From assembly GCA_964549305.1 (NCBI GenBank), contig CAZJVM010000077.1, positions 1 through 11,157 on the forward strand: DNA of 11,157 nucleotides, read 5' to 3'. Both the position numbers and the translations under genes were made by a program. Origin of the DNA: an uncultured bacterium (lineage in GTDB: Bacteria > Schekmanbacteria > GWA2-38-11 > J061). Positions 328 through 11,005 of this stretch are shown here, in pieces. Each line of letters begins with the position of its first letter. Within the stretch, counting starts at the first letter, position 1. Under the pieces are notes generated by a model, which did no database searches, was not told the DNA's origin, and worked only from the letters and a program-made list of their open reading frames with translations.

Positions 328-1632
328 ATGTTGAGAAGACTGTTGATGTTCCTGTTCGTTTTATCCGCTTTTTTTATTATTTCTAATCCTTTAATTGTGT
401 CCTCGGAAGAATCTTCAACAAGTGCGAAATGCATAAATTGCCATGAAAAGGAGAGAATTGCGCGCGCAGCAATCGAGGAATGGAGCAAAAGCACCCACGC
501 GAAAAACGATGTGGGATGCTTTGACTGCCACGAAGCAAATCAGGAAGACCCCGATGCCCTATCCCATTACGGAAATTACATTTCTGTCATAGTAACGCCA
601 AAAGACTGCGGGCAGTGCCACGACAGGGAAGCAAATGAATTTCAGGGCAGTCATCACGCGAAAGCAGGCGCCATATTGGGTTCTCTTGATAATGTGCTCG
701 GTGAAATCGTAGAAGGCGTTGCCGCCGCGAACAGCGGTTGTAAGCAGTGCCACGGTTCGAAGGTCGCTCTTCTTCCAAACGGAAAGCTTGATCCTGCAAC
801 ATGGCCCAATACGGGAATCGGCAGAATCAATCTTGACGGAAGCAGGGGTGCCTGCTCTGCCTGTCACTCAAGGCACAGCTTTTCCGTTGAGACTGCACGC
901 CGTCCCGATAACTGCGGAAAATGTCATCTCGGTCCCGATCATCCACAGAAAGAAATTTACGACGAGTCAAAGCACGGAATAGCGTTTTACGCCAATGAAG
1001 ATAAGATGAATCTCAAGGCAAGGCCGTGGATACTCGGCAAGGACTATTCTGCCGCGCCTACCTGTGCCACCTGTCATATGAGTGCTACTCCGGAACTGCC
1101 TGTGACCCACGATGTGGGTTCAAGGATAAGCTGGACATTAAGGCCTGTCGTCTCGAAGAAGCTTGAAAACTGGGAGGAGAAAAGGACAACTATGAAGGGA
1201 GTCTGCACTGAGTGCCATTCGCCTTCATATGTTGACGGTTTTTATAAACAGTTTGATGAAGTCGTGAACCTTTACAATAATAAATTCGCAATACCTGCAA
1301 AGAATATAATGGCAAAACTTAAAGCAGAAAAGAAACTGACGCCCACTCCCTTTGATGATGAGATTGAGTGGACATTCTTCTTTTTGTGGCATCACGAAGG
1401 AAGGCGCGCGAGACACGGCGCGGCAATGATGGGTCCTGATTATACACAGTGGCACGGATTCTTCGAGGTTGCGGAAAGATTTTATGTTGAATTCCTTCCT
1501 CAGGCAGAGGAGCTTTTGCCCGGAGTTACAAAGGAAGTAGATGATATGGACCTTCATAAGTGGAGGAAAGGACTCTCGAAAGAGGAGAGAGACAAGATTA
1601 AGGGTTTTTATCAGAAAAGATACGGGCAGTAA
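328..1632 (+). CDS. hao: Octaheme cytochrome c, hydroxylamine oxidoreductase (HAO) family; periplasmic, probably reductive type
   Basis: Sec-type signal peptide (MLRRLL-hydrophobic-VSS/EE). Eight CxxCH motifs: CINCH, CFDCH, CGQCH, CKQCH, CSACH, CGKCH, CATCH, CTECH. HAO-family signatures CHSRHSFS, CHLGPDHPQKEIY..SKHG, PTCATCHM and the C-terminal helical region HHEGRRARHGAAMMGPDYTQWHG. Confidence 0.9.
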   Translation: MLRRLLMFLFVLSAFFIISNPLIVSSEESSTSAKCINCHEKERIARAAIEEWSKSTHAKNDVGCFDCHEANQEDPDALSHYGNYISVIVTPKDCGQCHDREANEFQGSHHAKAGAILGSLDNVLGEIVEGVAAANSGCKQCHGSKVALLPNGKLDPATWPNTGIGRINLDGSRGACSACHSRHSFSVETARRPDNCGKCHLGPDHPQKEIYDESKHGIAFYANEDKMNLKARPWILGKDYSAAPTCATCHMSATPELPVTHDVGSRISWTLRPVVSKKLENWEEKRTTMKGVCTECHSPSYVDGFYKQFDEVVNLYNNKFAIPAKNIMAKLKAEKKLTPTPFDDEIEWTFFFLWHHEGRRARHGAAMMGPDYTQWHGFFEVAERFYVEFLPQAEELLPGVTKEVDDMDLHKWRKGLSKEERDKIKGFYQKRYGQ

Positions 1633-1721
1633 AACTTTAAAGCAGATATGCGCAGACATTAAGCAGGGAGTCTTCGGAGAATTATTACATCAAAAATATA
1701 AAACAGGATGTATGAAAATTC

Positions 1722-3602
1722 GTGCCTGATTACAAAGTAGAAATACCTGATTACGGCTACTGGAAAAAGCAGATTAAATGTCAGGAAGCATGTCCCGTGC
1801 ATACCGATTCAGGCGGTTATGTGAGGGCAATCGCGGAAGGCAATTATGAACTGGCATATCTCATAGCAAGAGGTCCAAACCCCCTTGCTTCAATTTGCGG
1901 CAGAGTTTGCGGGGCGCCCTGCGAGGCATCGTGCAGGCGCGGTTCAGTTGATGAAGCAGTTTCCATAAGGGCGCTTAAGAGGTTCGTAATTGAAAGTCTT
2001 GCCCTTGAAGGGGATGAAAACCTCGCCGAGAAATTCTTCCACCGTCTTAAAAATTTCATATCACCGCAAAAATGCAGCGCCGGCGAAGAGCTTGCCGCTC
2101 TCAAAGATTTTCTCAACAGTGCCGGCATAAAGAAACCTCAAGGCGAAAAGATTGCCATTATAGGAAGTGGACCTGCGGGACTTGCCGCGGCGCACGACCT
2201 TTGCCTTCTCGGTCTTCGCCCCGTTATTTTTGAAATGGAACCTGTCCCCGCGGGAATGCTCTATCTCGGCGTGCCTGAATACAGACTTCCGAGGGAGATA
2301 ATCGAAGCGGAAGTGGAAGTAATCAAGTCACTCGGCACGGAGATAAAATGTAACATTCAGGTGGGCAAGGACATAACTCTTGAAGAAATCCGCAAGGAGT
2401 ACAAGGCGACTCTTATTGCGGTAGGGGCAAAAAAATCGGCAAAGATTCCCATCCCCGGTGTTGACGCAAAGGGGGTTATCGGAGGTGTTGAACTTCTGAG
2501 GTCAGTGGCGTTGGGCGAAGAGGTAAAGCTCGGAGAAAAGGTCATCGTAATAGGCGGCGGAAATGTTGCCTATGATGTGGCGCGTACCGTTGTAAGGCAG
2601 GCGGAATACGATGTGTCGAGAACGGCATTGAGGCAGGAGTCGGTTAAGGAAGTGAAACTTTACTGTCTTGAATCCCTCGAAGAGATGCCTGCCGATGACG
2701 TTGAAATTAACGAAGGTGATGAGGAAGGAGTGAGCAGGCATAACAGTTGGGGACCGGTGGAAATAATCCTCGATAACGGAAGAGCAAGAGGTGTGAAATT
2801 CAAGAAATGTCTTTCCGTATATGACGAGAACAAGAGATTTTCACCTGTTTTTGATGAAGCAAATATAATGGACAGCGATGCCGATACGGTAATTCTCTCC
2901 ATAGGACAGGTTGCAGACCTTTCATTCATCGATTCTGACAGGGACAAAATCAAACTCACCGAAAGAGGTCAGATTGTAGTAAATCCTGAAACGTTGCAGT
3001 CGTCATCGCAGGATGTTTTCGTGGCAGGCGATATCGCTCATGGCACGAAACTTATGATTGATGCCATTTCAAGCGGAAAGCAGGCAGCAAGAAGTATGTT
3101 CGAAAAGGTAACCGGCAAAAAACTGGAAGTTGACCGCAAAGCAGGTTTTACTCTCCTTGAAAATTATGACCGCGAAAAGGATTACGAAAAATTTCACCGC
3201 ACCCATCCTCCAACCGCCCATCCGTCGGAAAGGAAAGATTCAGTGAAGGTGACCGTTGAAAAAGGATATCCGGAAAAACAGGCAGTGAGGGAAGGCGTAC
3301 GTTGTTATTCCTGCGACATACAGACGATTTTTCACAGCGAAAGATGTATTCTTTGCGCGGGTTGTGAGGATGTATGTCCGCTCAGATGCCTCAGGGTTGT
3401 AAGAGTGGAATCAATAAGAGGTGATGAAAAACTTGAAAAACTTCTTCACCGCAGATACGGAGAAAACGCGCCTAAGAGGGGAAGCGCGGTTATAAAGGAT
3501 GAAACGGAATGTATCAGGTGCGGGCTTTGTGCCAAGCGTTGCCCCGCACTGGCTATAACGATGGAACAATTTAAATTCAAAGAGAGCTATTCAGTCAAAT
3601 AA
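1722..3602 (+). CDS. FAD/NAD(P)-dependent iron-sulfur oxidoreductase (GltD/NfnL/SudA-like) with C-terminal 2x[4Fe-4S] ferredoxin domain
   Basis: GTG start, with an in-frame TGA at 1713 ruling out earlier starts. N-terminal Cys motifs CQEACPVH and CGRVCGAPCEASC. FAD motif IIGSGPAG, GVPEYRLP, nucleotide motif VIGGGNVA, VFVAGD and RCYSC. Ferredoxin motifs CILCAGCEDVCP and CIRCGLCAKRCP. No signal peptide or TM helix. Confidence 0.9.
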   Translation: MPDYKVEIPDYGYWKKQIKCQEACPVHTDSGGYVRAIAEGNYELAYLIARGPNPLASICGRVCGAPCEASCRRGSVDEAVSIRALKRFVIESLALEGDENLAEKFFHRLKNFISPQKCSAGEELAALKDFLNSAGIKKPQGEKIAIIGSGPAGLAAAHDLCLLGLRPVIFEMEPVPAGMLYLGVPEYRLPREIIEAEVEVIKSLGTEIKCNIQVGKDITLEEIRKEYKATLIAVGAKKSAKIPIPGVDAKGVIGGVELLRSVALGEEVKLGEKVIVIGGGNVAYDVARTVVRQAEYDVSRTALRQESVKEVKLYCLESLEEMPADDVEINEGDEEGVSRHNSWGPVEIILDNGRARGVKFKKCLSVYDENKRFSPVFDEANIMDSDADTVILSIGQVADLSFIDSDRDKIKLTERGQIVVNPETLQSSSQDVFVAGDIAHGTKLMIDAISSGKQAARSMFEKVTGKKLEVDRKAGFTLLENYDREKDYEKFHRTHPPTAHPSERKDSVKVTVEKGYPEKQAVREGVRCYSCDIQTIFHSERCILCAGCEDVCPLRCLRVVRVESIRGDEKLEKLLHRRYGENAPKRGSAVIKDETECIRCGLCAKRCPALAITMEQFKFKESYSVK

Positions 3603-3624
3603 ACTGAAAAGAGGGGAGTATCGG

Positions 3625-4080
3625 ATGGAAGATAAAAAAATAGACCGCAGAAGTTTTCTTGAAAAGACCGGATTCTATTCCTTCTGGCTTACAATAGTTG
3701 CATCGGTTACGGGAATGCTCAGGTATTTTCTGCCGGAGGTTTTCGATGAACCGTCAATGTCATTCCGTCTTGGCAAATCGGAGGATTTTTCAAATGAGGA
3801 GGCAATACTCCTCGAGGATAAAAACCTTTTCGTAATCAAAGACTCCGAAGGTCTTTATGTAATTTCCGCCGTATGTACTCATCTCGGATGTATTGTAGCG
3901 CGCACGGACATCGGTTATGCCTGTCCCTGCCACGGGAGCAAATTCGATTTGAAAGGCAATGTGGTGGGCGGACCCGCACCCAGAAGTCTCTCCTGGTTCA
4001 AGGTTTACAGGTCTGCTGAAGGATATCTGATGGTTGATACTTCAAAGAGCGTGAAAATCGGAGAGAAATTAAAGATTTAA
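3625..4080 (+). CDS. qcrA: Rieske [2Fe-2S] subunit of a Rieske/cytochrome b complex
   Basis: Tat motif DRRSFLE followed by a hydrophobic anchor. Rieske boxes CTHLGC and CPCHGSKF, and GPAPRSL loop. RBS GAGGGGAG upstream. Adjacent to cytochrome b. Confidence 0.93.
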   Translation: MEDKKIDRRSFLEKTGFYSFWLTIVASVTGMLRYFLPEVFDEPSMSFRLGKSEDFSNEEAILLEDKNLFVIKDSEGLYVISAVCTHLGCIVARTDIGYACPCHGSKFDLKGNVVGGPAPRSLSWFKVYRSAEGYLMVDTSKSVKIGEKLKI

Positions 4081-4100
4081 TAAACCGGAGGGTTAATAAA

Positions 4101-5654
4101 ATGGCAGGTACCGATAAAAAAGCAATACCTGGTATCTTTATCGATAATCTGAAGAAAATCCCGACTTCATTTAAGGAGGCGTTTGTCAGACACGACCTTC
4201 CGCCGGAATCGGAGAGAGAAAGGGCATCGGCTGTCTTTTCCAATTTTTTTCTTCATCTTCATCCCACAAGAGTCAGCTCACACGTGCTCAAACCTACATA
4301 CACTCTCGGTTTGGGGCTTATGTGCGTATTTCTTTTTCTCATACTTGCTGTAACAGGTGTTATTCTGATGGTTTATTATGTTCCCTATGTGCCTGATGCG
4401 TATGAATCCGTTAAAAATATCCGCTACGCGGTTACGGGGGGACAATTCATAATCAATATCCACAGATGGTCTGCCCACGGAATGGTCTTAATCGTGATAT
4501 TCCATATGATGAGGGTCTTCTACACGGGTTCCTATAAATCCCCGCGTGAATTCAACTGGGTTGTGGGAGTCATACTGCTTGTTCTTACTCTTGCCCTGAG
4601 CTTCAGCGGTTATCTTCTTCCTTATGACCAGCTTGCATACTGGGCAATGACAATCGGCTCGAATATTGCGGGCTCTGTCACTGAATTTACCGATGCTATA
4701 GGAATAACCGGCATTTTCGATGTGGGCAAACTTCAGAAACAGATTTTAATCGGTGGCAATAAAATAGGTGAGTCGGCACTTTTAAGGTTTTATTTTCTAC
4801 ACGTTATTTTCCTTCCCATTGTTATAAGTATTTTCATAGGCGTCCATCTCTGGAGAATCACGAAGGACGGCGGACTTTCAAAACCGGGAGAGGAGACTGA
4901 GAGAATAGATTATCTTGATGTTGACGGGGAGAACGTTCCCAATACTGACAAAACATACGGGCTTATGTCCATTGTACGCGGGAATACTCCGCAGGTGGGA
5001 AATTATACCGACGATACCGTTCCCACCTGGCCCAATGTACTTCTTGCCGAAGGGGCGGTTTTTGTCTTCTGCGTCGCGGTAATGTGCCTTCTTTCCCTTT
5101 TCTTCGATGCGCCGTTGAAGGAGATAGCAAACGCGGCAGTACCTGAAAATCCTGCAAAAGCACCCTGGTATTTTCTCGGGCTTCAGGAACTTGTAAGCTA
5201 TTCGGCGTTTATCGGAGGCATAGTCGCTCCTGCCGTTACGGTAATAGGGCTTATGCTGATACCTTTTCTCGACAGGGAAAGAACGAATGTTGGCGTGTGG
5301 TTCTCAGGTTCTGAGGGAATCAGGATAGTCTTCAGGTCGCTTTTTTTCGGATTCGTGAGCATTGTTCTTTTAATCGGATTTACCGTGCAGTTTGGCTGGC
5401 TCAGAAACTGGTTCCCGGGAATTCCTCAGTTGATGATAATCCTCATTAATCCCGCAACTATAATAATGGCGCTTTTTGCCTACTGGTATTTTAAAATAAT
5501 CAAAGAGACCGGCTCAATGAGAATGGCTTCCATAGGGCTTTTCACGCTTATTATTGTGGGGTTTGCAGTGTTGACTTATGTAGGGGTTTTTCTCAGGGGG
5601 CCTAACTGGGATTTCTACTGGTTCAAATCACAGTGGCCGGGCATTCATTTTTAA
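4101..5654 (+). CDS. qcrB: Cytochrome b subunit (cytochrome b6-like domain fused to subunit IV-like domain)
   Basis: Heme b ligand pairs HRWSAHGMVLIVIFH and HVIFLPIVISIFIGVH. Motifs YKSPREFNWVVG, SGYLLPYDQLAYWA and LLRFYFLH. Subunit IV-like region WPN...PENPAKAPWYFLGLQEL...IPFLD...RGPNW. Multiple hydrophobic helices. GGAGG RBS. Confidence 0.93.
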   Translation: MAGTDKKAIPGIFIDNLKKIPTSFKEAFVRHDLPPESERERASAVFSNFFLHLHPTRVSSHVLKPTYTLGLGLMCVFLFLILAVTGVILMVYYVPYVPDAYESVKNIRYAVTGGQFIINIHRWSAHGMVLIVIFHMMRVFYTGSYKSPREFNWVVGVILLVLTLALSFSGYLLPYDQLAYWAMTIGSNIAGSVTEFTDAIGITGIFDVGKLQKQILIGGNKIGESALLRFYFLHVIFLPIVISIFIGVHLWRITKDGGLSKPGEETERIDYLDVDGENVPNTDKTYGLMSIVRGNTPQVGNYTDDTVPTWPNVLLAEGAVFVFCVAVMCLLSLFFDAPLKEIANAAVPENPAKAPWYFLGLQELVSYSAFIGGIVAPAVTVIGLMLIPFLDRERTNVGVWFSGSEGIRIVFRSLFFGFVSIVLLIGFTVQFGWLRNWFPGIPQLMIILINPATIIMALFAYWYFKIIKETGSMRMASIGLFTLIIVGFAVLTYVGVFLRGPNWDFYWFKSQWPGIHF

Positions 5655-5741
5655 ATATTCGGGGTGTTTTTTGATGATTGAAAAAGCATACAGCAGAGAA
5701 AATAGGAAACCCTCAATCAAAAGAGGAGTGAAATAAGGATA

Positions 5742-8288
5742 ATGAAGAAATTTTTCGCATATTCAAGCATCGCGGCTTTTTTATTAATCGTTATTGCCTT
5801 ATTGATTAATATTAATCCCCAGTGGAAGCATTATCAGAAGGAGTACAAAAAAATTGCAGCAGAAAAAATAAATGACAAGGAAATACTCGAACTCATCCTC
5901 GACAAGAATATTTCTCTTCAGCAAAATTTTGTCAAATCATTCGGAAAGAAAGACCGCTGTATTGCGTGCCATCTTGGAATCGAAAATCCCTATATGGCAG
6001 ATGTTGAACAGCCATTCACGAAACATCCTGGAAACATCCTTGATATCCATCCGGCGGAAAAATACGGCTGTACCATTTGTCACGAAGGGCAGGGGGTAGC
6101 CACGAATACGGAAGATGCTCACGGCATAGGAACACCTTATGTTGAACGGCCTATGCTCACAGGTCCCTTCATTCAGTCGTCGTGTATGAAATGCCACAGG
6201 GATGTTGACTCAATAGGTACGGAAATGCTTTCCCGCGGGAGAATGCTTTTCAGAGAGAATGGTTGTCAGAATTGCCACAGGGTAAAAGGGAAGGGCGGGA
6301 ATCGCGGTCCCGAACTTACATATATATCCGATGCGAGCATTTATATTAAGCATTCCACAGAAAATAACCTTCACGAATATCTTAAAAAGTTCAGTGAAAA
6401 TTATAATATTGCCTTCATCTTCGAATCTGTACTTCAACCGAAAGCACAACCGGAAAATTCGGCAATGGTTGATTTCAAACTTAATGAAGAGGACGCTCGT
6501 GCAATCACAGTTTATCTGAAGGGACTTACGGCGGAAGATGTTCCTGCGTCTTTCATCCCGGAAGAAAATGTTGAAAAACAGACGGGCAGAGAACTTTTTA
6601 TGCAGTACTGTTCTGTGTGCCACGGCAAAAAAGGCGAAGGCACGCGCCTTCCTGAACTTGGCGGAAAAATTGGTCCCGCAATCGGGAATCAGCAGTTTCT
6701 CGCAATCGCGGATACTGCTCTTCTGAAATATATAATTACAAATTCAAAGGGCGGTCCTATGCCCGCATGGGGGACAACGGGAGGACTTGATGAGAGCGAG
6801 ATAAACAAAATTGTCGCTTATGTTAAAAACTTTCGCACGCCTCCCCCGTCTTACAAAGAAGTAGCGGAAGCAGACGGAAACACCGCGTTCGGTGAAATGA
6901 TATTTATGGCAAACTGTTCCGGTTGCCACGGCATAGACGGTAAACACGAAACTGACCTCATAGGTCCCACTCTCAACAATCCCCAGCTTTTATCAATGGC
7001 GACGAAGAGATTCTGGTATGACACACTTACACAGGGAAGGGAAGGAACAGCAATGCCTTCGTGGAATTTTCTTGGCACCCGTCAGATTGCCGATGTTATA
7101 AGTTATCTTGAAAGCTGGAAACCGAAAAAACGTTATGTTTCCACTGCCCTTGCGACTTCCGGTTCTTCTTCCCGCGGCGGAAAATCATTTAGAATGTATT
7201 GTGCCGGATGTCACGGCAAATCCGCCGAAGGCGTAATAGGACCAAGTCTTCGCGCGCCTGAATTTTTGAGGATTGCGGGTTCACGCTTCCTTTATAGAAC
7301 CATTGTTGAAGGACGCGCTGAAACGGCTATGCCTTCATTCAGATATCTTCCTTCGCGGATAGTTGCGGACATAGTCGCGTATATTAAATCATTATACAAA
7401 GGGCCTGAAAAAAACTTGCCCTACATAAGAGTAAGAGGTTCGGAATATAACGGTGAGAATATTTTCAGCCGTATCTGCGCGCAGTGCCACGGCATTAAGG
7501 GTCAGGGCGGGATAGGTCCCGCAATCGGGAGAAAAGGATTCCTTGGGCAGGTTTCAGATTCTTTCCTCAGAGAAATAATACGTTACGGGCGAAGCGGTAC
7601 GCAGATGAGGGCAAATCTCGCGGGGCATGGCGGTCTTGTTGAACTGTCAAGGCGCGATATAGATGACACCATTTCCTACATAAGAACTCTTGATAACAGC
7701 AATAACCTGAACCCTTCATACATAGAAGGTGATGCCCTGTTGGGAAAAGAGAGATTCAGACGCCTTTGCGGGCAGTGTCACGGACTTGAGGGTGAAGGCG
7801 GGATTGGACCTGCAATCGGCAAGACAGCATTTCTGAACGCTGTTAGTGACGGCTTTATTCAGGCAATGGTCACAAGAGGCAGGGACGGAACGGAAATGAG
7901 GCCATTTACCGAAACAGGTGACGGCATTGCGCGCCTTGATGAAAAAGAGCTTTCCAATATCATTGCCTATCTTCGTTCACATTCCCATGAAGTGGATGGA
8001 ATATCAAAGTCTCTCACAGGGACGCCTGTTTCAGGAAAAATGCTTTTTGAAAGGAATTGCGCGCAGTGCCACGGTTATGAAGGAATGGGAAGTTTTGCTC
8101 CGGAGCTTGGAACATCACAATTCCTGAAAGCCGCGTCAGACAGTTATCTGCAGGCGACAATGGCGCTTGGAAGACATCAGACATTAATGAAGCCAATGAT
8201 AAGAGGAGGCGCCGGTGTAGTGGAACTTACATCAAAGGAAGTGAATGACATTATATCGTACCTAAGGACTATACAGAGAGATTATTGA
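5742..8288 (+). CDS. Membrane-anchored decaheme cytochrome c with tandem class I (CcoP-like) domains
   Basis: N-terminal hydrophobic helix. Ten CxxCH motifs: CIACH, CTICH, CMKCH, CQNCH, CSVCH, CSGCH, CAGCH, CAQCH, CGQCH, CAQCH. The last seven sit in class I-type domains (G..LF...CxxCH..GP....M). Confidence 0.9.
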   Translation: MKKFFAYSSIAAFLLIVIALLININPQWKHYQKEYKKIAAEKINDKEILELILDKNISLQQNFVKSFGKKDRCIACHLGIENPYMADVEQPFTKHPGNILDIHPAEKYGCTICHEGQGVATNTEDAHGIGTPYVERPMLTGPFIQSSCMKCHRDVDSIGTEMLSRGRMLFRENGCQNCHRVKGKGGNRGPELTYISDASIYIKHSTENNLHEYLKKFSENYNIAFIFESVLQPKAQPENSAMVDFKLNEEDARAITVYLKGLTAEDVPASFIPEENVEKQTGRELFMQYCSVCHGKKGEGTRLPELGGKIGPAIGNQQFLAIADTALLKYIITNSKGGPMPAWGTTGGLDESEINKIVAYVKNFRTPPPSYKEVAEADGNTAFGEMIFMANCSGCHGIDGKHETDLIGPTLNNPQLLSMATKRFWYDTLTQGREGTAMPSWNFLGTRQIADVISYLESWKPKKRYVSTALATSGSSSRGGKSFRMYCAGCHGKSAEGVIGPSLRAPEFLRIAGSRFLYRTIVEGRAETAMPSFRYLPSRIVADIVAYIKSLYKGPEKNLPYIRVRGSEYNGENIFSRICAQCHGIKGQGGIGPAIGRKGFLGQVSDSFLREIIRYGRSGTQMRANLAGHGGLVELSRRDIDDTISYIRTLDNSNNLNPSYIEGDALLGKERFRRLCGQCHGLEGEGGIGPAIGKTAFLNAVSDGFIQAMVTRGRDGTEMRPFTETGDGIARLDEKELSNIIAYLRSHSHEVDGISKSLTGTPVSGKMLFERNCAQCHGYEGMGSFAPELGTSQFLKAASDSYLQATMALGRHQTLMKPMIRGGAGVVELTSKEVNDIISYLRTIQRDY
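6582..8270 (+). repeat. Six tandem ~92-102 aa monoheme cytochrome c domains (intragenic repeat)
   Basis: CxxCH motifs start at 6609, 6915, 7200, 7476, 7767 and 8058. The shared pattern is CxxCHG..G.G.IGP.(I/L)...FL......L...I..GR..T.M. Exact DNA repeats: GGTCCCGCAATCGGGA (6672, 7515) and TGCGCGCAGTGCCACGG (7476, 8058). Confidence 0.85.
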
Positions 8289-8335
8289 GAATAATTTTTT
8301 TGAAAATATTTCCATAAATTTACGGGAGATTTGAG

Positions 8336-11005
8336 ATGGGAAAAAAAGGTAACGTAACACGCAGAAATTTTTTGAAATGCACCGCGGCGGGAACAATAGG
8401 TGCAGGCCTTGGGCTTGACGGAATGTTGTTTGCTCCGGATAAAGTGCTTGCCGAAGAAATGGGAGCCAGAGGTCTTATTGAAAAAATATCCCAGTGTCCG
8501 TACTGCGGTGTCGGTTGCGGAACTGTCATAAAAGCAGATCCCAAAACAGGAAAAATTGTGGGAGTCGTTCCTGATAAACAGCATCCCACAAACCGCGGTG
8601 TGCAGTGCATAAAGGGACTAAATGCTGATGAACCGACATATGTTGACAGGTTGACCAAAGTTCTCATCAGAAAAGATATGTCCGACCCTGAAAAGGGGTA
8701 TGAGTCGCAGACAAAGGGGAGTTTTGATGATGATGTGTGGAGGGAGGCAACCTACGAGGAAGCGGAAAAGCTTGTGTCTGAAAAGGCAGGCGCTATTGTG
8801 AAAAAATACGGGGGCAACTCCGTAGGCCTTTACGGCTCCGGACAGCTTACCGTTGAAGCACAATGGATGGAAAACAAACTGGTTAAAGGAATCCTTCAGT
8901 CAAACTCCATTGAAGCTAACGCAAGGATGTGTATGACAAGCGCGGTTACGGCGTATTTTGCAACATTGGGTTCGGATACTCCTCCTCTCTGCTATGACGA
9001 CATTGAAATGAGCGATATGATAACCTTCTGGGGGCATAACCCCCGCGAATCTCACCCAATAGTTTTCTGGCGCGCCGCAGACCATAAGAAAAAGAACGGA
9101 ATACCCACATTGGTTTCCGACCCGAGGCGCACCGGAACCGTTCAGGCGCTTGAATCGGTTAATCCCAGAAACAGCCATCACTTCGCTTCTATAAACGGAG
9201 ATATATCCTGCCTGAATGCCATTGCTCACTGCCTTGTAACAGAGCATGAGCAGGTAATCGATTATAAGTTTTTAAAGGAAAATGTAACAGGGTGGCAGGA
9301 GTATATTGCTACGGTTAAAAAAGATTATGCCCCAGAAAAAGTTAAAGACAGGACAATGGTTGAGCCGGCGCTTATAAGAAAAATTGCTTCCGAATGGGCT
9401 GCCGCAACAATGAAGGGCAGAAGGCGCGGGACGGGTGGTGTCATTTCATTCTGGGGTATCGGCTATAACCAGCACATCCACGGTCAGCATAATGTAATCA
9501 GCATCATCAACCTCCACGCCCTGACAGGAAATATCGGCAGACCGGGCGCAGGCCCTTTTTCAATGACAGGACAGCCCAATGCAATGGGTGAACGGTTGAT
9601 GGGGGGATTGACAGGCAGACTTCCTTTTAATGAAGCGCTTGCAAATCAAAAACACCGCGAATGGATGAATGAAAGCTGGAATCTTCCAAAAGGACGGCTT
9701 GATAAGACAGCGGGAGAAAAAAATCCCGGAATGATGATTGGACTTTTCGAGAGGGCGATGAAGGGGGATGTGAAAATGATGTTTTATATGTACACAACCC
9801 ATGTACATCAGCCCGACCTCAATACGCTTATAAGACCCGCGCTGAAGAAGCTTTTTGTTGTTACTCAGGATATTTACAGGCACGCCCCGAATCTTCTTTA
9901 TTCAGATGTTGTTTTCCCCGCGATGACCTGGGGAGAATGGCAGGGCGGAACATATATAAGCTCAGAGAGAAGATTTGATATTTGTGACGGAGTGGGCAAA
10001 ACCGCTGACGGTATTGAAGGATGCCTTCCTGATCTTGATATGGCGATTGACAAGGGTAAAAACATTGCAAAACTTCTCGGTCTGGACGGCGAGAAAATCT
10101 TTCCATACAAGAAAAGGAAATTTCATCCCACGGGAACAGAACTTTATGACGCAGAGGAAGTTTTTGAAGAAATCGTCAAGGCATCAAAGGGAACAGACTG
10201 CGACCTGACAGGTATGCTTGAAGTGAGGAAAAAGGACGGAACGGGTTTATATGACCAGATCAGGATGCACCGCGGTATTCAGTGGCCTGCTCCAAATTAT
10301 GAAATTGCGAAGGCAGGCGGGACAAAGAGACGCTATATGGGGCAGGAAGAAGGCTGGACAAAGAAACCCTATGGCGCGTTCAGGCACAGCGACGGGAAAC
10401 TTCATATAAAGACGTGCAAGCAGGATTATTCCCGGAGAAAAGCAATGTCAAAGGAGCTTAATAAATTCGGCACGCAAAAAGGTTTTTACACCATTGACCA
10501 TATGGACATCCTCAAGAAGGCGCGCGATATGGCGCTTACTCCTGAATTGCCTGATTTTGAATACAAGGGAAGAAAATGGGATAAGGTTCCAAAGAATAAG
10601 TATCCCTTCTGGCTTGGGCTTGGGATTGTTTATGAACATTTCCATACGGCAAAGACAATTCGCGGAGCAACAACAAGACGTCTTGTTCCTGAACAGTATG
10701 TTGAGATGCATCCTGAAGATGCAAAGGAAAACGGTCTTCATGACGGAGATAAGATACGCGTTACTACAAGAAGAGGGTCTTATGAAGGAAGGGTGAGTGT
10801 GGGTGGAATCAGAAGCAAGGTAAAACCTGCAAGAACCGAAGTGCCGAAAGGTTACATCTTCTCACCGTGGAATCTTTCAGTTGCAGACTCGGCAGACCCT
10901 AAAAAGAATAAATGGCTTGTTAACGCAGTTTCCCACAGGGCTTATGATCCTGTTTCAGGGCAGGCGGATTTTAAAAAGCTTGCGGCAAGAATAGAAAAGA
11001 TTTGA
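8336..11005 (+). CDS. napA: Tat-exported Mo-bisPGD nitrate reductase catalytic subunit (NapA/NasA/NarB clade), divergent
   Basis: Tat signal TRRNFLK...VLA/EE. [4Fe-4S] motif CPYCGVGC...CIKG. YGSGQ, Mo-ligand motif NARMCMTSAV (Cys-Met, typical of nitrate reductases, not the Cys/Sec-His of FDH), WGHNPRESHP, LTGNIGRPGAGPFSMTGQPNAMG and EHFHT. C-terminal VEMHPEDA...DPVSGQADFK. Confidence 0.8.
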   Translation: MGKKGNVTRRNFLKCTAAGTIGAGLGLDGMLFAPDKVLAEEMGARGLIEKISQCPYCGVGCGTVIKADPKTGKIVGVVPDKQHPTNRGVQCIKGLNADEPTYVDRLTKVLIRKDMSDPEKGYESQTKGSFDDDVWREATYEEAEKLVSEKAGAIVKKYGGNSVGLYGSGQLTVEAQWMENKLVKGILQSNSIEANARMCMTSAVTAYFATLGSDTPPLCYDDIEMSDMITFWGHNPRESHPIVFWRAADHKKKNGIPTLVSDPRRTGTVQALESVNPRNSHHFASINGDISCLNAIAHCLVTEHEQVIDYKFLKENVTGWQEYIATVKKDYAPEKVKDRTMVEPALIRKIASEWAAATMKGRRRGTGGVISFWGIGYNQHIHGQHNVISIINLHALTGNIGRPGAGPFSMTGQPNAMGERLMGGLTGRLPFNEALANQKHREWMNESWNLPKGRLDKTAGEKNPGMMIGLFERAMKGDVKMMFYMYTTHVHQPDLNTLIRPALKKLFVVTQDIYRHAPNLLYSDVVFPAMTWGEWQGGTYISSERRFDICDGVGKTADGIEGCLPDLDMAIDKGKNIAKLLGLDGEKIFPYKKRKFHPTGTELYDAEEVFEEIVKASKGTDCDLTGMLEVRKKDGTGLYDQIRMHRGIQWPAPNYEIAKAGGTKRRYMGQEEGWTKKPYGAFRHSDGKLHIKTCKQDYSRRKAMSKELNKFGTQKGFYTIDHMDILKKARDMALTPELPDFEYKGRKWDKVPKNKYPFWLGLGIVYEHFHTAKTIRGATTRRLVPEQYVEMHPEDAKENGLHDGDKIRVTTRRGSYEGRVSVGGIRSKVKPARTEVPKGYIFSPWNLSVADSADPKKNKWLVNAVSHRAYDPVSGQADFKKLAARIEKI

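Follow-up and report, generated by a model that had tools for sequence, protein, structure and literature searches.

A candidate nitrate-to-ammonium gene cluster built on a subfamily-G Rieske/cytochrome b complex in Candidatus Schekmanbacteria

Gene content of the locus

The window analyzed here, a stretch of 11,157 bases that forms the entire contig C77 of an uncultured bacterial genome (G000, the host), encodes a putative nitrate-respiring system organized around a Rieske/cytochrome b complex. Its six open reading frames (ORFs) are co-directional on the + strand and span positions 328-11005, with five of them filling 328-8288 (Table 1) and gaps of 89, 22, 20, 87 and 47 bases along the run. 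The original prediction for this DNA had listed an HAO-like protein, an NAD(P) flavoprotein, a Rieske protein, a b6/IV cytochrome, a multiheme cytochrome c and a molybdenum (Mo) enzyme, and this part list is borne out by the ORFs, heme counts and Pfam domains. Two details need correction: cytochrome b6 and subunit IV are not two genes but one fused protein, and the Mo enzyme gene sits just beyond the 328-8288 stretch in which it had been counted.

Table 1. Genes of the window, with positions on the 11,157-base stretch.
Product	Position	Strand	Features
HAO-family octaheme cytochrome c	328..1632	+	8 CxxCH; PF13447
GltD/NfnB/DsrL-like FAD + Fe-S flavoprotein, C-terminal ferredoxin domain	1722..3602	+	Pyr_redox_2, Fer4_20 and Fer4 (Pfam); NCBIfam
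Rieske [2Fe-2S] protein, twin-arginine N-terminus	3625..4080	+	PF00355
Fused cytochrome b and subunit IV, subfamily G, 517 residues	4101..5654	+	Cytochrome b N-terminal domain (Pfam)
Membrane-anchored decaheme cytochrome c	5742..8288	+	10 CxxCH; six cytochrome c domains (Pfam)
Mo-bis(pyranopterin guanine dinucleotide) enzyme exported by twin-arginine translocation (Tat), Nap/Nas/Fdh family	8336..11005	+	Molybdopterin, Fe4S4 and TAT domains (Pfam)

The six-gene run is neither a chance arrangement nor an assembly product, because the genome G052, from the same family as the host, carries these six genes in an unchanged order (66-82% identity), and a contig from an independent sequencing run connects the last part of the octaheme gene, over a diverged spacer, with the beginning of the flavoprotein gene. 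Downstream of the six genes, G052 has napG-, napH-, unknown, napH- and napG-like genes. Four of these five, all but the last, have orthologues at the opening of the host contig C103, and the host cluster probably continues there. The last bases of C77 and the first of C103 share no exact overlap of at least 15 bases, and none of the short sequencing-run contigs was seen to span napA to napG; the join of napA to napG in the host is therefore taken from G052. Promoter and terminator scans of the window did not depart from chance expectation (15 vs 17.5 and 13 vs 12.2), and a search of plasmids for the cytochrome b homologue at E 1e-60 returned none.

The host and its respiratory inventory

The host taxon had been held to be indeterminable from this DNA, but RpoB of the host genome assigns it to Ca. 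Schekmanbacteria, with 85% and 70% identity to named proteins of this group and 59-61% for the next matches. A 16S gene was not found in the host genome. Only four other genomes share the order of the host; beyond them, kinship drops to the level of the domain.

The host is not an anammox organism, because the HZS_alpha model had no match in its genome (0/1; no anammox positive control was run for this model), one gene only exceeded the cut-off for the HAO family (PF13447), and the window octaheme scored 84 bits against the HDH model, far below the cut-off of 900. The proposed check for hydrazine genes thus came out negative for both HZS_alpha and HDH. It is extremely improbable that the cluster is an anammox-derived module with anammox function, which would reduce nitrite to NO for hydrazine synthesis and supply NAD(P)H for carbon fixation: the equal part categories and the common cytochrome b subfamily G would suit this idea, whereas these model scores in a genome rated 100% complete, the Schekmanbacteria host and the rejected nesting in anammox clades (see below) all speak against it.

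The host encodes NuoF (complex I), MqnA (menaquinone route) and one heme-copper oxidase, read as cbb3 from its neighbour genes. Searches of the host genome did not find NrfA, NapB (PF03892, 0/1 genome), NirK, NirS, NarG, NXR or NosZ, nor acsB, RuBisCO or a convincing ATP-citrate lyase. Weak, short and low-scoring matches to PF00374 and PF16114 are presumably NuoD and succinyl-CoA synthetase. Sulfur oxidation via Dsr was rejected as an electron source, with DsrA below cut-off in 5/5 genomes of the order, host included.

A module with a terminal enzyme in many phyla

A genome scan returned at least 507 relatives of the window cytochrome b. The best 80 were kept, so close relatives are over-represented in the locus counts. 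The module of flavoprotein, Rieske/cytochrome b and multiheme cytochrome c recurs in these loci: the flavoprotein gene lies upstream of the Rieske gene in 70 of the 80 and is missing despite room in one, and L030 and probably L015 are module loci without it.

Sixty-five loci have room downstream of the c subunit gene, the other 15 ending too soon. A terminal oxidoreductase follows in 59 of the 65, in 54 cases within 600 bases of the c gene, and none in six. Nitrate/nitrite-type Mo enzymes of four kinds account for 55 of the 59: Nap-like in 25 loci, a periplasmic type II enzyme of the dimethyl sulfoxide reductase family (Nar-like; substrate inferred) in 19, NXR-like in seven (46% identity to the Mo enzyme beside an anammox Rieske/cytochrome b locus) and NarGHJI in four (L022, L032, L044 and L070, with narGHJI checked in L022). 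The other partners are a Tat-type NosZ in two Nitrospirota loci (L003 and L004), an Aio/Idr-like enzyme in L064 and an ArrA-like enzyme in L078 (11481-19497), where the c subunit has 19 hemes. In L064 (13964-19590), two MauG-like diheme genes come after the module, then an AioB-like Rieske gene and an AioA-like gene; the arrangement is reminiscent of the iodate reductase IdrABP.

Since 59 of the 65 roomy loci carry a downstream terminal oxidoreductase, the Mo enzyme is integral to the module and not a local add-on. The original prediction had described a Kuenenia-like module "extended by a nitrate reductase"; this does not stand, as the Mo enzyme is the usual end of the module in many phyla. 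Nap-type loci alone occur in at least nine named phyla.

The heme number of the c subunit varies with the partner. All 22 complete decaheme loci have a Nap-like partner, which is also found with three octaheme-c loci and with no 6-, 7- or 9-heme locus; hexaheme c pairs with the Nar types and NosZ, and 7 or 9 hemes pair with NXR-like enzymes. On the cytochrome b tree, the partner label switches 11 times. A napG gene follows the Nap-like gene in 24 of the 25 loci and is present in none with another partner.

Relation to the anammox Rieske/cytochrome b complexes

For comparison, 22 of 401 Planctomycetota genomes were picked by the HDH model (16 over cut-off), and 20 cytochrome b neighbourhoods were taken from them. 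Two of the sampled sets reproduce the residue numbers published for Kuste4571/4570 (His43, Arg247, Arg511) and Kustd1481/1483 (His62, Arg266, Lys267, Arg550) (PMC12954380).

In a quick cytochrome b tree of 123 rows, with the Shimodaira-Hasegawa-like approximate likelihood ratio test (SH-aLRT) as its only support measure, the window and G052 form a group with 78 loci of other phyla (98%) that is distinct from the anammox side. The approximately unbiased (AU) test rejects nesting of the window protein with kuste and kustd (p 3.5e-50, 42 rows) and also with the anammox side as a whole (p 8.6e-5, 43 rows), and module and anammox proteins together (38 rows) are set off from five outgroup rows at 100% SH-aLRT. 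For the Rieske protein (30 module rows sampled), anammox nesting is likewise AU-rejected (p 5.2e-14), and the window joins the module at 84%; its best PDB matches, 9rk4 and 9rk3, are both Kuenenia-type Rieske chains. Judged from these sequences, the Rieske/cytochrome b core belongs to a clade that is a cousin of the Kuenenia complexes and does not fall among them.

The flavoprotein is 33-35% identical to its Kuenenia counterparts. Its tree (36 of 66 module rows sampled) joins the window and the module at 99%, with an unreliable deep order in which the outgroup does not fall on one side of a branch. Two host paralogues are placed between the anammox and module clades. With the split outgroup and these paralogues, the tree does not demonstrate that the flavoprotein link arose only once. 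The octaheme shares 22-26% identity with the Kuste4574 type and falls into a separate 100% clade.

The idea that the cluster is a relative of the Kuenenia module therefore survives for the homologous core, to which the cytochrome b and Rieske results and the conserved residues His52 and Arg606 (see below) attest, and fails for nesting within the anammox clades and for the HAO-like part. Convergent assembly, which had been named as the refuting case, applies to the octaheme only, whose share in the likeness is convergent.

Common to the window and the Kuenenia complexes (Kuste4569-4574 and Kustd1480-1485) are a subfamily-G cytochrome b with the P-WY motif, an NAD(P)-type Fe-S flavoprotein, a homologous N-terminal multiheme c, a five-helix subunit IV part, a His for a predicted extra heme and a Ser-bearing Rieske protein. 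The window is nearer to Kustd than to Kuste in Ser-x-Phe, Lys255 and Arg606. It differs in its fused cytochrome b (theirs is split into b6 and a subunit IV, with CxGG for heme cn), in a decaheme instead of a hexa- or octaheme c subunit, in the unrelated octaheme, in CLES replacing YRRT in the flavoprotein, and in the attached Nap-like enzyme and napGH. One HDH-positive genome holds a locus (L147, G376:C13:95474-102493) with the window-like order flavoprotein-Rieske-cytochrome b and a CLEA motif, together with a split cytochrome b that has the Cys for heme cn, and an octaheme of the Kuste4574 type; it is a possible intermediate between the two designs.

Subunits of the core complex

In the window cytochrome b, the heme ligands His121, His135, His234 and His249 are intact, and the Qo motif P355-W356-Y357 (P-WY) is present in 40/40 module proteins. 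This motif and the grouping with anammox G sequences place it in subfamily G. The Cys for heme cn is missing: the site reads GLGL with Gly70, and the Cys occurs in 0/78 module rows vs 15/15 kuste/kustd rows. Five residues past the last heme ligand, module proteins have Thr or Arg and not the His of bc1. His52 lies at a predicted dimer-interface heme site and is kept in 78/78 module rows, Lys255 is kept in 76/76 ungapped rows, and Arg606 of the flavoprotein is kept in 68/68 module proteins. They correspond to His43 of Kuste4571 or His62 of Kustd1481, to Lys267 and to Arg550 of Kustd1483, respectively; Thr254 of the window occupies the Arg266/247 position of the anammox proteins, a predicted propionate-partner site. 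The anammox residues have been named as ligand and propionate partners of an extra heme that is itself modelled (PMC12954380).

The structure prediction (pTM, predicted template modelling score, 0.80) gives a cytochrome bc fold with 4+5 long helices. The C-terminal His516 (window 5646-5648) is invariant in 40/40 module proteins, and its equivalent is missing from the two anammox subunit IV tails checked. Placed after nine helices, it would lie on the periplasmic side and is a candidate ligand for a heme of the c subunit. A complex prediction for the cytochrome b dimer (residues 22-420) with the C-terminal part of the flavoprotein (470-626) scored 0.02 against a mark of 0.32 and counts neither way.

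The decaheme c subunit starts with four hemes homologous to anammox c subunits, followed by six class I cytochrome c domains; its residues 1-270 are 27-40% identical to 18 multihemes from anammox loci. The Rieske protein carries a Ser-x-Phe second-sphere pair, present in 71/75 module Rieske proteins and in Kustd1480, for which a potential of +335 mV was measured. The flavoprotein has 16 Cys conserved across module homologues and no hydrophobic segment, and is read as cytoplasmic. At its cofactor site, a CLES/SLES-type motif replaces YRR in 68/68 module proteins; YRRT is found in 11/12 anammox flavoproteins vs 0/68. By analogy with the corresponding motif of DsrL (PMC7596348), the CLES type suggests NAD(H).

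The molybdenum enzyme and the octaheme cytochrome

The Mo enzyme shares with NapA (PDB 2nya, 2jim) a Tat signal, an N-terminal 4Fe-4S motif, a Cys-Met pair at the Mo site (Cys199-Met) and napG/napH neighbours, has the GQPNAMG motif of nitrate-reductase type and is about 30% identical to annotated NapA/NasA. It differs in the missing NapB and in further points taken up below. Formate dehydrogenase was rejected as its identity on the Cys-Met pair, which stands in place of the Cys-His/Gln and NNVQG of sampled FdhF, and assimilatory nitrate reductase was rejected on the Tat signal and the napGH context. At E <= 1e-100, its relatives comprise 1296 protein clusters, possibly including other family members, and the group is mostly annotated as generic oxidoreductase. 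The gene is present in two of the five genomes of the host order.

The octaheme has IhOCC (4qo5) as best PDB match (E 1.7e-45) and agrees with the reductive, IhOCC-type pattern: eight CxxCH, the HAO fold, an Asp-His pair and no cross-link Tyr. In the alignment its Trp375 stands opposite the HDH Tyr at 462-463, the cross-link Tyr (P460) being absent; three residues before it is Tyr372, a placement also seen in other Tyr-less rows. The cross-link Tyr of HDH is numbered 462. An oxidative HAO was rejected on the replacement of this Tyr by Trp375. Like the window protein, IhOCC is an HAO-family octaheme without the P460 Tyr, and it has been described as a nitrite reductase (PMC9250108). The octaheme of Nitrospira, likened here by description only, adjoins a Rieske/cytochrome b pair and was proposed to be assimilatory (PMC6311188). 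Compared with both, the window octaheme heads a flavoprotein-bearing cluster and lacks a C-terminal membrane helix. With a signal-like hydrophobic stretch at residues 6-24, it is likely located in the periplasm.

Because it belongs to a different clade from the Kuste4574 type, its position beside a bc complex is a separate recruitment. Stand-alone anammox octahemes (L162:8329-9990 in G212; L163-L165) fall into the clade of the window octaheme, with 45-51% identity and Trp at the cross-link site, and differ from the bc-linked anammox octaheme. At E <= 1e-50, 32 of 50 module genomes (genomes given for 50 of the 80 loci) have an octaheme of the window type; such octahemes occur in 15/20 Nap-type module genomes vs 78/301 sampled Planctomycetota, an unmatched control with related genomes that are not independent. 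Since NrfA, NirK, NirS and the other searched enzymes were not found in the host, the octaheme is the only candidate for a dissimilatory nitrite reductase found there, and we consider it the probable nitrite reductase of the cluster.

Proposed electron routes

Taken together, the cluster very probably respires nitrate using its bc-type core. The full scheme, a nitrate-to-ammonium cluster on an NAD-linked subfamily-G complex including the NAD+ step, is proposed tentatively and at somewhat less than an even chance. Its steps are given in falling confidence and build on parts, motifs, gene order and spread seen in the sequence. First, menaquinol would be oxidized at the P-WY site of cytochrome b. 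Second, the high-potential electron would pass from the Rieske center to the decaheme c and on to the Nap-like enzyme, which would reduce nitrate to nitrite; the six class I domains of the decaheme c would substitute for the missing NapB. Third, the Tyr-less octaheme would reduce nitrite, probably to ammonium. Fourth, the low-potential electron would move from heme bP via bN and the dimer-interface heme at His52 to the Fe-S clusters and FAD of the flavoprotein and finally to NAD+, a route replacing the N-side quinone as acceptor.

Re-oxidation of this NADH by complex I would let nitrate respiration move more charges than a plain Q-cycle does. A hand count gives about six charges per net quinol, two electrons across the membrane and four protons from complex I, vs two for the Q-cycle. 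Calculated from standard potentials and leaving the proton motive force aside, bifurcation would yield -50 kJ per NADH for nitrate as acceptor and -32 kJ for nitrite/ammonium. The N-side exit to NAD+ is favoured because heme cn is absent, the Rieske protein has Ser-x-Phe, the partners are mostly of high potential and complex I is present. In the anammox complexes, heme cn is seen as a leak to menaquinone, and NAD(P)H-driven quinone reduction has been argued to be wasteful where complex I exists (PMC12954380).

Several observations weigh against this scheme. At 98 kJ per quinol it would be feasible only below about 170 mV, near the limit. There is no obvious autotrophic need for uphill NADH in a host in which acsB, RuBisCO and a convincing ATP-citrate lyase were not found. 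Nap electron carriers usually lie well below +300 mV, and the steps past the Rieske center may be uphill. In cytochrome b of both the host and G052, Thr254 and Ile118 replace Arg residues kept in 38 of 40 aligned proteins; these positions may contact heme propionates, so that heme potentials may be shifted in this lineage. Glu317, kept in 35/40, could be part of a functional quinone site on the N side, and His52 is also kept in complexes without flavoprotein and so is no marker of flavoprotein wiring. Among the related loci, the cytoplasmic-type NarG of four would not be fed directly by a periplasmic cytochrome, the octaheme adjoins the module in just 3/80 (one of them a distant type), and the pairing of heme number and partner leaves only two starred independent pairs (p 0.5), which is too few. 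The Mo enzyme scores 336 against the NapA family model of NCBIfam (cut-off 904), has WGIG, with Ile near the site, where NapA has WTMG, and in a quick tree is set apart on a branch of its own (100%), within a polytomy that also holds three NapA, two NasA, three Fdh-like and one Aio protein. Finally, the napG/napH-like genes offer it a second possible source of quinol electrons.

This last point leads to a reading in which NapGH is the true quinol dehydrogenase of the Mo enzyme and the Rieske/cytochrome b complex serves the octaheme or another acceptor, or in which the Mo substrate is not nitrate. The restriction of napG to Nap-type loci fits it, as do the long separate branch of the Mo enzyme among NapA, NasA, FdhF and Aio, the octahemes of the window clade that often stand behind a Rieske/cytochrome b of their own (PMC6311188) and the NosZ, Aio/Idr-like and ArrA-like genes that the module also precedes. 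We nevertheless regard it as quite improbable: in Nap-type loci the extra class I domains are carried by the bc complex in its own c subunit, NapB was not found, and Cys-Met and GQPNAMG match nitrate reductases and not the sampled FdhF.

The direction of the NAD step could also be reversed. The flavoprotein would then oxidize NADH and cytochrome b would reduce menaquinone, making the cluster a self-contained NADH:nitrate oxidoreductase. The CLES/SLES-type motif, by the DsrL analogy, points to NAD(H), the catabolic pool; autotrophy markers were not found in the host, Glu317 is kept, and NADH to nitrate yields -145 kJ/mol. Such a system would bypass the complex I of the host and, in a hand count, move about 2 charges per NADH vs about 6. 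Together with the missing heme cn Cys and with Thr/Arg in place of His past the last heme ligand, this makes the reversed direction rather unlikely.

Alternatively, an ordinary Q-cycling bc complex might feed the Nap-like enzyme, the flavoprotein being an accessory with little flux that serves priming, redox balance or a ferredoxin link. The Qo motif and all four heme His are intact, related complexes without a flavoprotein keep His52, the module loci L030 and probably L015 lack the flavoprotein, and a Rieske/cytochrome b pair of Caldithrix was proposed to feed Nap and an octaheme in a locus described without a flavoprotein (PMC5317091). We judge this unlikely given how constant the flavoprotein is, both in its presence in 70 of 80 loci, with one absence despite room, and in its nearly invariant Cys ligands and Arg606. 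Export of the low-potential electron to NAD+ remains our preferred reading of the fourth step.

Known systems and wider meaning

Parts of this system are already published, with precedents in Caldithrix, Nitrospira and subfamily G. Cytochromes b of subfamily G (G or G'), for instance Acid_3505 of Solibacter, have the GLGL and P-WY motifs of the window according to Fig. S1 of PMC5600118. That paper reports oxidoreductase genes beside them "in many other cases"; in the parts covered here, it draws no tie to nitrate or other terminal reductases and gives the G' operons as of unknown function. The nap-Rieske/cytochrome b-epsilon-Hao locus of Caldithrix abyssi has in common with the window a NapA without NapB/NapC, napGH, Rieske/cytochrome b and a Tyr-less octaheme, and its Rieske/cytochrome b was proposed to feed both NapA and the octaheme in nitrate ammonification; by description only, it differs in a tetraheme NapM and in having neither an NAD-linked flavoprotein nor a decaheme c (PMC5317091). 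In the openly accessible literature searched, no paper was found that describes the flavoprotein-Rieske/cytochrome b-multiheme module joined to nitrate reductases. The window adds the Schekmanbacteria host and an octaheme that could complete nitrate ammonification.

A broader, doubtful but possible generalization is that the module is a widespread NAD-linked Rieske/cytochrome b front end without heme cn, which bifurcates menaquinol electrons to NAD+ and to a plugged-in high-potential terminal enzyme (Nap-like, periplasmic Nar-like, NXR-like, NosZ or Aio/Idr-like), the heme tail of the c subunit being matched to the partner. The anammox complexes would then be specialized members of an older design, and the window its nitrate-to-ammonium version, using a Nap-like branch missed by napA screens. 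If true, this front end coupled to complex I would roughly triple the charges per quinol.

Reduction of NAD(P)+ by Rieske/cytochrome b bifurcation is a proposal made for anammox bacteria, and the module clade lets the question be asked outside anammox cells. It offers a defined, assayable acceptor (nitrate), no heme cn to complicate the scheme, and many phyla. Given the generic labels of the Mo enzyme group, genomes may encode nitrate respiration and ammonification more often than is counted. Two of the five Schekmanbacteria genomes can be assigned a predicted nitrate-ammonifying potential.

Further multiheme loci in Schekmanbacteria

The host genome is rich in multiheme proteins, with 32 ORFs of at least three CxxCH motifs and up to 25 hemes (contig C14). 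It holds a second subfamily-G set of Rieske, fused cytochrome b and octaheme c without flavoprotein (L120, G000:C55:3848-8616, - strand), a third Rieske/cytochrome b set among multihemes on contig C88 and a set resembling alternative complex III or Qrc on C42. The G053 orthologue of L120, named L118, has an NXR-like gene downstream, while no NXR was found in the host genome. G053, another Schekmanbacterium, also carries on its contig C18 a run of flavoprotein (CLES), Rieske, fused cytochrome b (SLGL) and pentaheme amid many multihemes (L117), which falls outside both the anammox and the module clades.

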